From Microbotryum violaceum (taxonomy: Eukaryota), in assembly GCA_001244265.2 (NCBI GenBank), contig CDLV01000007.1:2108001-2172000 (forward strand): a DNA stretch of 64,000 nt. The letters are read 5' to 3'. Below, piece by piece: positions 261 to 484 of the stretch. The notes beneath the pieces are model-generated. The model had not been told where the DNA came from. It saw only the letters and a list, made by a program, of their open reading frames with translations, and searched no databases. Made by a program: the position numbers and the translations under genes. How positions within the stretch are numbered: position 1 is the stretch's first letter; every line of letters begins with the position of its first letter.

Positions 261-484
261 TGTAAGGCCCATGCGCCTGGGCCTTATGAGAAGGGAGCGC
301 GCGCCTGGACACTCTTAGTCTCCCCTCAGCGACTAACACGAGTGTCCAGGTGAGCCTATGGTGGATCAGAAGTCATAGTCATTGCAGCGACTAACACAAG
401 TGTCCAGTGTTAATTCCACATACTTTGGTCCTGTGATACTCTCGTCGTCGCTCTCTGGTGTACGCTCCTACGGGGTGTATTACA
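261..484 (+). repeat. Gypsy-B 5' LTR
   Basis: TGTAAGG...TATTACA, matches 10006-10229; internal 23-bp direct repeat at 327-349 and 385-407. Confidence 0.97.

Follow-up and report, generated by a model that had tools for sequence, protein, structure and literature searches.

How an LTR retrotransposon could keep an intron within its own LTR is the question raised by this locus. Introns are lost when a retroelement is copied from its spliced RNA, and LTR elements are hence thought to be intron-poor, or else obliged to keep the splicing and export machinery away from their unspliced RNA. The DNA analyzed here, referred to as the window, is a stretch of 64,000 nt from Microbotryum violaceum (assembly GCA_001244265.2, contig CDLV01000007.1, positions 2,108,001 to 2,172,000 of the forward strand). 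A first-pass annotation of the window had proposed that several LTRs contain a candidate intron whose 3′ end duplicates the sequence directly upstream of its donor, and that this repeat allows the intron to be spliced out and rebuilt in every replication cycle. In what follows, a denotes the upstream copy of the repeat, a′ denotes the copy that ends at the candidate acceptor, and the sequence between the two is the spacer.

The nest of LTR retrotransposons

The first 23 kb of the window consist of nested LTR retrotransposons, and a further, older element lies downstream. The following elements and associated features are relevant here:

261-10229, plus strand: Gypsy-B element, TSD CCAAG at 256-260 and 10230-10234
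502-5370, plus strand: Copia-1 element, TSD CATCG at 497-501 and 5371-5375
879-890, plus strand: 12 nt resembling a primer-binding site, directly 3′ of the Copia-1 5′ LTR and containing an ATG
13600-18001, plus strand: Gypsy-C element, TSD CATTG at 13595-13599 and 18002-18006
43507-51907, plus strand: Copia-2 element, older, interrupted by a solo LTR (45776-46013)

Gypsy-B sits within a gypsy-type element of greater age and is itself split by Copia-1 (502-5370), 16 nt past the Gypsy-B 5′ LTR. Copia-1 contains a single open frame of 1408 codons encoding a copia-type gag, integrase, and reverse transcriptase (Pfam domains Retrotran_gag_2, gag_pre-integrs, rve, and RVT_2), and its LTR pair is 100% identical across 378 nt. 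Its domain content, flanking LTRs, and TSD are those of a Ty1/copia element. The 12 nt at 879-890 may be a tRNA primer-binding site; no tRNA genes were found within the 64-kb window. Gypsy-C is a chromovirus with about 82% identity to Gypsy-B. Both gypsy-type elements carry the Pfam domains RVP_2, RVT_1, RT_RNaseH, Integrase_H2C2, rve, SH3_Tf2-1, and Chromo, while Pfam recognized no capsid family in either; by domains, LTRs, and TSDs, both are Ty3/gypsy chromoviruses. Besides the solo LTR, an opposite-strand reverse-transcriptase frame of the non-LTR type interrupts Copia-2.

Logan contigs from four runs (X1, X3, X8, and X4) were compared with positions 879-17770 of the window; such contigs show neither starts, nor ends, nor strand. 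Run X1 is DNA-like, with a depth of about 20 for Gypsy-B, about 48 for Gypsy-C, and about 95 for Copia-1, in addition to empty insertion sites. The contigs of X3, X8, and X4 may be of RNA or of DNA origin. Empty insertion sites are spanned by contigs of X1 (Gypsy-B and Gypsy-C) and X4 (Gypsy-C). The elements are recent, as seen from the LTR identity and open frame of Copia-1 and from the empty insertion sites of Gypsy-B and Gypsy-C.

Anatomy of the gypsy-type LTRs

The gypsy-type LTRs and their candidate introns are organized as follows:

261-484, plus strand: Gypsy-B 5′ LTR, 224 nt
327-349, plus strand: copy a of the Gypsy-B 5′ LTR, putative first exon and R, preceded by a pyrimidine-rich tract
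350-407, plus strand: Gypsy-B candidate intron of 58 nt, composed of the spacer (350-384, starting with GTGAGC) and a′ (385-407)
10006-10229, plus strand: Gypsy-B 3′ LTR, with a at 10072-10094 and the candidate intron at 10095-10152, laid out as in the 5′ LTR
13600-13880, plus strand: Gypsy-C 5′ LTR, with three a copies at 13666-13688, 13724-13746, and 13782-13804
17779-18001, plus strand: Gypsy-C 3′ LTR, with a at 17845-17867, a′ at 17903-17925, and the candidate intron at 17868-17925
23270-23148, minus strand: truncated Gypsy-type LTR, with a at 23232-23206 and donor GTGAGC from 23205
45776-46013, plus strand: solo LTR within the integrase region of Copia-2, TSD CCGGT
45883-45942, plus strand: candidate intron of 60 nt in the solo LTR (GTGAGT...CTGAC...TAG), preceded by a at 45860-45882

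In the Gypsy-B 5′ LTR, a and a′ share 22 of 23 letters, while the two copies in the Gypsy-C 3′ LTR are identical (23/23). The Gypsy-C 5′ LTR contains two 58-nt units, each starting with GTGAGC, and forms a tandem array of 2.4 units. In the minus-strand fragment, a′ (23171-23148) is diverged and cut, matching a at 21 of 27 positions. The solo LTR is laid out as a U3 of 84 nt, an a of 23 nt, a spacer of 37 nt, an a′ of 23 nt (45920-45942, 23/23 identical to a), and a U5 of 71 nt. It opens with TGTAAGG, as do the LTRs of Gypsy-B and Gypsy-C, and aligns with both, to which it is distantly related. The solo LTR had been described as unrelated in sequence to the other gypsy-type LTRs, a view that its alignment, its shared start, and its shared layout contradict. 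No a-type repeat was found in the portions present of the presumed Gypsy-A 3′ LTR (near 18688-19100) and of a Copia-3 3′ LTR fragment (22888-23147), both with approximate limits.

Anatomy of the copia-type LTRs

The copia-type LTRs have a longer repeat and a shorter spacer:

502-878, plus strand: Copia-1 5′ LTR, with a at 655-735 and a candidate intron of 97 nt at 736-832
4994-5370, plus strand: Copia-1 3′ LTR, with a at 5147-5227 and the candidate intron at 5228-5324
43507-43773, plus strand: Copia-2 5′ LTR, with a at 43622-43682 and a candidate intron of 77 nt at 43683-43759
51718-51907, plus strand: Copia-2 3′ LTR, an intron-less form with a single copy a (51833-51893) that runs straight into a U5 of 14 nt

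The Copia-1 5′ LTR has an a of 81 nt, a spacer of 16 nt starting with GTTAGT, and an a′ (752-832) that is identical to a over all 81 positions. In the Copia-2 5′ LTR, a measures 61 nt and is followed by a spacer of the same length and start, and by an a′ matching at 60 of 61 positions. The lone a of the Copia-2 3′ LTR is identical to the a of the 5′ LTR (61/61) and differs from its a′ by one letter (60/61).

Two features of this lineage constrain where an intron and an RNA end could be located. An ATG lies within the 12 nt directly 3′ of the LTR; a variant copy present in all four runs has this ATG in frame with gag, and the copy of the window has it out of frame. Since this ATG follows the LTR immediately, any leader intron must sit inside the LTR. 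Moreover, only 14 nt follow a′ in the Copia-2 5′ LTR, which leaves a′ itself, the few nucleotides behind it, or a site outside the LTR for the RNA end.

The boundary between the repeat and the donor motif is non-random

All six sites named by the first-pass annotation read as it had described them. Nine LTR copies provide ten boundaries at which an a copy is followed by a spacer, and at every one of these (10/10) the copy ends in AG and continues with GTGAGC, GTGAGT, or GTTAGT, in line with the earlier statement that GTGAG or GTTAG directly follows the first copy. The repeat recurs after a unique spacer of 16-37 nt (16 nt in the Copia lineage, 34-37 nt in the Gypsy-type LTRs), and spacer and second copy together form units of 58, 58, 60, 77, and 97 nt.

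The motif AGGT[AGT]AG occurs at 26 sites on both strands of the window, corresponding to 2.0e-4 per position per strand. Ten of these sites are the LTR boundaries, where the last 12 exon letters recur at most 110 nt away with 0-2 mismatches; at the other 16, the corresponding 12 letters recur with 3-7 mismatches at best. When local direct repeats on the plus strand were searched for blindly, 23 rows resulted. Seven rows are LTR repeats, with AG/GT at the boundary in 7/7, compared to 0/16 for the other rows. The rows outside the LTRs correspond to A/T-rich runs (32.6-34.2 kb) and to a tandem repeat located upstream of a U2 snRNA gene. With the 16 background sites per 128,000 positions, an exact AG/GT[AGT]AG boundary has a probability near 1e-4 in one lineage and near 1e-8 in both. 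Within the window, donor motifs follow LTR-internal repeats more frequently than by chance.

The number of independent occurrences had been overstated, however. Several distinct families with unrelated sequences were claimed, and what we find is two independent lineages rather than four to six. The first is Gypsy-type and comprises Gypsy-B, Gypsy-C, the minus-strand fragment, and the solo LTR, while the second is Copia-type and comprises Copia-1 and Copia-2, which are related to each other. The anatomy is real, far beyond chance, and conserved in these two independent lineages.

Elsewhere, a metagenome scan with the Gypsy-C pol yielded six loci with 21-56% identity, in which AG/GT was found in none of 69 local-repeat rows; locus L003, the only one of the six with a recognizable LTR pair, has no such repeat. 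A scan of viral contigs with the Copia-1 protein gave no match.

Likeness to splice signals

Conservation among the Gypsy-type LTRs peaks at the donor, where AGGTGAG is shared unchanged by the five aligned LTRs, at a mean column identity of 70%. The spacers are less similar, with 28/35 identical positions between Gypsy-B and Gypsy-C and 22/39 between Gypsy-B and the solo LTR. The spacers of Copia-1 and Copia-2 share their first seven letters, and 9/16 overall.

Short fungal introns have a CTRAY-like branch consensus before the 3′ splice site. A motif of this kind, with its A located 13 nt from the acceptor, occurs in the four Gypsy-type LTRs scanned (both of Gypsy-B, Gypsy-C, and the solo LTR). 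It varies between CTAAC, CTGAT, and CTGAC at this fixed distance; in the a′ of Gypsy-B (385-407), CTAAC lies 13 nt ahead of the terminal CAG. Each of the six LTRs tabulated has CAG or TAG as its candidate acceptor, and the unit lengths fall in the range of short fungal introns. In Copia-1, the only branch-like motif is TTGAC, 28 nt from the acceptor, and the candidate intron of Copia-2 contains no YTRAY match. The donor (10/10) and the YAG acceptor (6/6) are those of a short fungal GT-AG intron throughout; branch-like motifs are present in the Gypsy-type LTRs scanned, and weak or absent in the Copia lineage.

A further GT..AG segment, 110 nt long, lies in the internal part of Gypsy-C (14255-14364), and contigs from three runs join across it. 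These joints lend indirect support to the spliceability of these elements, the contigs representing either RNA or processed DNA copies.

Behavior and edges of the repeat

In none of five LTRs is the spacer similar to its surroundings, whether 3′ of a′ or 5′ of a (p >= 0.1 versus shuffles in each). As only a is duplicated, a simple tandem duplication of two copies does not account for the layout. We accordingly rejected tandem duplication as the origin of the two-copy LTRs, since the spacer has no match after a′ in 5/5 LTRs. The edges of the repeat are sharp: in every LTR, the unit opens precisely with GT and the last copy terminates precisely with AG. At the left edge, the 20 nt ahead of a are 70-85% pyrimidine in 6/6 LTRs, and a begins with CA, CCA, or A. 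Fungal transcription starts often follow pyrimidine-rich tracts, and the left edge of a could be a transcription start site.

Within elements, a and a′ are nearly or fully identical (22/23, 23/23, 23/23, 81/81, and 60/61), while a differs considerably between families (14/24 between the solo LTR and Gypsy-B, 46/83 between Copia-1 and Copia-2). Copies a and a′ therefore evolve in concert, as expected of copies kept alike by replication. In Gypsy-B, the same position is mismatched between a and a′ in both LTRs, which implies that a′ was no perfect copy of a at the last transposition.

The number of copies is not constant. The two-copy layout described in the first-pass annotation does not apply to the Gypsy-C 5′ LTR (three copies) or to the Copia-2 3′ LTR (one copy). 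Both elements have discordant LTR pairs, with three (5′) versus two (3′) copies in Gypsy-C and two (5′) versus one (3′) in Copia-2, and it follows that slippage or recombination between copies occurs. Such events alone can homogenize the repeats and delete a unit without any splicing.

One X4 contig joins position 10071 to 10130 and skips 58 nt, with at least 79 letters on each side and with U3 included. This joint represents either a genomic one-copy LTR of Gypsy-B, or spliced read-through or 3′ LTR RNA; it attests to some one-copy form, and does not discriminate between the models. The Logan assembly uses words of 31 letters, shorter than the Copia-1 repeat. A joint from 5229 to 5336 of Copia-1 in X1 was discounted, as the 83-nt repeat may collapse in the assembly.

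A proposed self-regenerating cycle and its alternatives

The reading that we favor, tentatively and at slightly less than an even chance, is that the segment from the GT after a to the AG that ends a′ is a spliceosomal intron of the 5′ leader contained within the LTR, with a serving both as first exon and as R. Transcription would start where a begins, or nearby, and the cap-proximal intron of the 5′ LTR would be spliced out to give a-U5-PBS. In the 3′ LTR, the RNA would end in or shortly after a′ and the copy located there would be left unspliced. The minus-strand strong-stop cDNA, which would be the complement of a-U5, could then anneal to the terminal a′ and be extended through the spacer, a, and U3, so that both progeny LTRs would again read U3-a-spacer-a′-U5. 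As a′ would be rewritten from a in each round, the copies would stay alike and the right edge of the repeat would be fixed at the donor. A jump onto the inner a would produce a one-copy LTR, and a three-copy LTR would result if the 5′ end remained unspliced and its jump was out of register. By-products of the predicted kinds exist, namely a one-copy LTR, a three-copy LTR, and the X4 contig that skips 58 nt.

Each prediction of the first-pass proposal that is testable from sequence agrees with this cycle (the donor edge, the duplication of a only, the concerted a and a′, the pyrimidine tract, and the one- and three-copy forms), but the diversity of families on which it drew was overstated. Other observations weigh against the cycle. 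The layout is known from two independent lineages of one genome, within a single window of 64 kb, and the parts present of the Gypsy-A and Copia-3 LTR-like stretches lack the repeat. Discordant LTR pairs are not a product of the simple cycle, and the branch-like motifs of the Copia lineage are weak or absent. Were transcription to start at a, the Gypsy-type LTRs would have a U3 of only 66-84 nt, and the truncated fragment one of 38 nt, which is short for a promoter. The shared mismatch in Gypsy-B would need a polymorphic parent or an error of the reverse transcriptase. If the RNA ended beyond a′, the 3′ copy would form a complete, spliceable intron and the model would then need differential splicing; the 3′ copy could perhaps escape through an advantage of cap-proximal introns. 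Self-priming of the Tf1 type was considered for Gypsy-B and Gypsy-C, and no complement of the start of a was seen by eye in the leader. The wider claim, that two superfamilies converged on an exon-copying LTR intron and that splicing is an obligatory, self-repairing step of replication with the first exon as R, may hold, although on the sequence evidence we would place it below even.

Foremost among the alternatives is that the intron is real and the repeat incidental, which we regard as rather unlikely. Unspliced RNA would be packaged and only the messenger pool would be spliced, as in retroviruses; R would be the whole a-spacer-a′ block, moved in register, and the likeness of the copies would arise from template switching or slippage. 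The conserved splice motifs fit this case, the shifts in copy number inside single elements (3 versus 2, 2 versus 1) and hence slippage are in its favor, and the a/a′ difference of Gypsy-B is heritable, being present in both LTRs. It also agrees with the usual behavior of retroelements, which export and package unspliced RNA (PMC10309623). However, packaging of unspliced RNA gives no reason why the 3′ end of an intron should copy the exact first exon, or why the repeat should stop right at the donor, in two unrelated superfamilies, nor why the duplication covers a and not the spacer. Slippage, moreover, cannot restore the spacer after a contraction to one copy, and homogenization by this route thus needs repeated passage through three-copy forms.

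It is less probable still, and in our view unlikely, that no splicing takes place at all and that the LTRs contain an ordinary partial tandem repeat, such as a start or enhancer element, generated and kept alike by reverse-transcriptase slippage. GT[GT]AG would then have another use (for example, U1 snRNP binding to control the LTR poly(A) site) or be inherited by descent within each lineage. Tandem repeats are common in LTRs, the Gypsy-C 5′ LTR is a true array of 2.4 units of 58 nt, and both the limitation to two independent lineages and the weak Copia branch motifs fit such an origin. On the other side stand the improbability of the exact boundary calculated above for one lineage and for two, the donor as the best-conserved block of the Gypsy-type LTRs, a branch-like motif at 13 nt followed by YAG, and lengths like those of short fungal introns. 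In addition, arrays of 1.4-1.8 units that end at AG before unique sequence are unlike the product of one tandem duplication.

Very improbable is a short conventional R, in which a alone is R, the RNA ends right after a in the 3′ LTR, close to AG/GT, and the spacer and a relic a′ form the start of U5: a standard cycle would inherit this layout stably with no special step, yet it predicts no homogenization of a′ although a and a′ co-vary, and it leaves the donor, branch, and acceptor motifs unexplained.

Comparison with known systems

The first-pass annotation knew of no description of the mechanism, and our searches of full-text literature likewise found no account of an intron that is confined to the LTR and ends in a copy of the first exon. 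The novelty would lie in the replication trick and not in the class of element. If the self-regenerating cycle is true, it would be a new solution to the conflict between splicing and intron retention, and R in LTR annotation would gain a new reading as a first exon. A measurable gene conversion of a′ by a would be predicted in each cycle. The elements could also resemble host messengers; in some fungi, introns aid expression, or unspliced and poorly spliced transcripts attract silencing.

In conventional LTR elements, R is a short redundancy at both RNA ends that guides the first template switch, and the R stretch of the progeny derives from the 5′ copy. Conventional R is continuous and present once per LTR, whereas the R proposed here would be present twice per LTR, flanking the intron spacer, and its 5′ copy would be brought beside U5 by splicing.

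In the Rogers model, an intron is reportedly gained when a segment that contains AGGT is duplicated in tandem. It resembles the present layout in that the upstream exon end is repeated at the intron end. It differs in that the downstream exon opens with a repeat of the intron start, a feature absent here in 5/5 LTRs, and in that it predicts no ongoing homogenization.

Deltaretroviruses and foamy viruses have a splice donor inside R, an acceptor far downstream, and packaged RNA that is unspliced; HTLV-1 splice sites in vectors are the subject of a preprint. As in the LTRs described here, the 5′ splice site of these viruses lies within the LTR and hence in both LTRs, being functional there and a candidate here. 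In contrast, their intron extends beyond the LTR.

Among natural elements, Penelope-like elements offer a parallel in layout. Their pseudo-LTR carries the start site and, in Penelope, a 75-bp intron in the 5′-UTR that is kept after retrotransposition; the passages of PMC8557442 concerned attribute this retention to an unusual mechanism and state that its significance is unknown. In common with the layout proposed here, these elements thus combine a start in the terminal repeat with a short leader intron that survives retrotransposition. They differ in having a telomerase-like reverse transcriptase and a GIY-YIG nuclease and in being target-primed, and the same passages describe no exon copy at the intron end. 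Membership of the present elements in this group was rejected, since Pfam shows copia-type and gypsy-type domains only, and the likeness is an analogy of layout.

Engineered split-intron retroviral vectors (Ismail et al., 2000, as described in part of PMC3182074) offer a parallel in replication, since LTR copying moves the donor into their 5′ LTR. Two aspects would be shared with the proposed cycle according to this description: LTR copying during reverse transcription positions a splice site, and the intron of the integrated copy is not present in that form in the RNA template. The vectors differ in being man-made and in the placement of their splice sites, the 3′ LTR holding the donor and the acceptor lying outside the LTR; as far as this description goes, their intron is created once and there is no duplicated first exon serving as R. 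Should the cycle proposed for the Microbotryum elements be true, it would represent a natural counterpart to these engineered vectors.

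Insertion polymorphism and coding content of the Gypsy-type elements

Contigs assembled from sequencing run X1 run uninterrupted over the empty site of the chromovirus Gypsy-B (target-site duplication 256-260/10230-10234), and the empty site of the related Gypsy-C (13595-13599/18002-18006) is likewise crossed by contigs of runs X1 and X4. Both insertions are therefore missing in some of the sequenced samples, which suggests recent activity of the two elements. At 11429/11430, the X1 and X4 contigs carry 159 additional letters compared with the window.

The first frame of Gypsy-C (13977-15221) matches only aspartic-protease families in Pfam, with no capsid or zinc-knuckle family detected in this frame by the same search. 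Since Gypsy-C is in addition only about 4.4 kb long, Gypsy-B and Gypsy-C may be devoid of a conventional gag. The frame contains an intron-like segment with a counterpart in Gypsy-B:

14255-14364, Gypsy-C: 110-nt internal GT..AG segment (GTACGC ... TGCTGAC ... CAG)
near 6464-6573, Gypsy-B: stretch homologous to the 110-nt segment

The segment includes the protease active-site motif, and sequence comparison shows that its signals are also kept in Gypsy-B. Contigs of runs X3, X8, and X4, in which RNA and DNA are not distinguishable, bridge 14255-14364 in Gypsy-C. Its removal leaves a frame of 93 codons from the ATG at 13977, closed by a TAA immediately after the junction. The contig joints may represent a spliced subgenomic message or processed copies.

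Primer-binding regions

Immediately 3' of the Gypsy-B/C LTR (485-500, 5371-5400, 13881-13910) stand nine consecutive T and then CACA(C/T)CGG, and a primer binding site of the tRNA-3'-end type starting with TGG is absent from this position. In the Ty1/copia element Copia-1, the 12 nt resembling a primer binding site (within 879-904) hold an ATG that does not share the gag reading frame in the window copy. A 24-letter variant of the 879-904 stretch, found in all four runs (X1, X3, X8, and X4), brings the ATG into frame. Judging from this difference, the window copy may be translation-defective, despite its identical LTRs.

Other element sequences

Further element sequences in the window are:

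from 22888: Copia-3 3' LTR fragment
48672-50852, minus strand: non-LTR-type reverse-transcriptase frame (RVT_1 and zf-RVT), inserted in Copia-2

Within 22888-23270, the palindrome AGAATTCT near 23143-23150 marks the point where the Copia-3 fragment adjoins a Gypsy-type LTR fragment on the minus strand. Each fragment is cut near the end of its own a-like segment (a being the LTR segment that directly precedes the candidate intron donor).

A motif recurring in LTRs and upstream of the U2 gene

29342-29534, plus strand: gene for the U2 spliceosomal RNA, matching Rfam RF00004 at 104.8 bits
29017-29102: GTCACTAA-rich 58-nt tandem repeat, upstream of the U2 gene

The motif GCGCGCGC occurs 14 times in the window against 1.5 expected, a count reached in none of 100 shuffles; its sites include 297, 10042, 29252, 41932, 43346, 43569, 45782, 51780, and 55027. 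Gypsy-B, Copia-2, and the solo LTR carry it in their U3, Copia-1 has near-variants of it, and one site precedes the U2 gene by about 85 nt. GCGCGCGC possibly serves as a shared promoter element.
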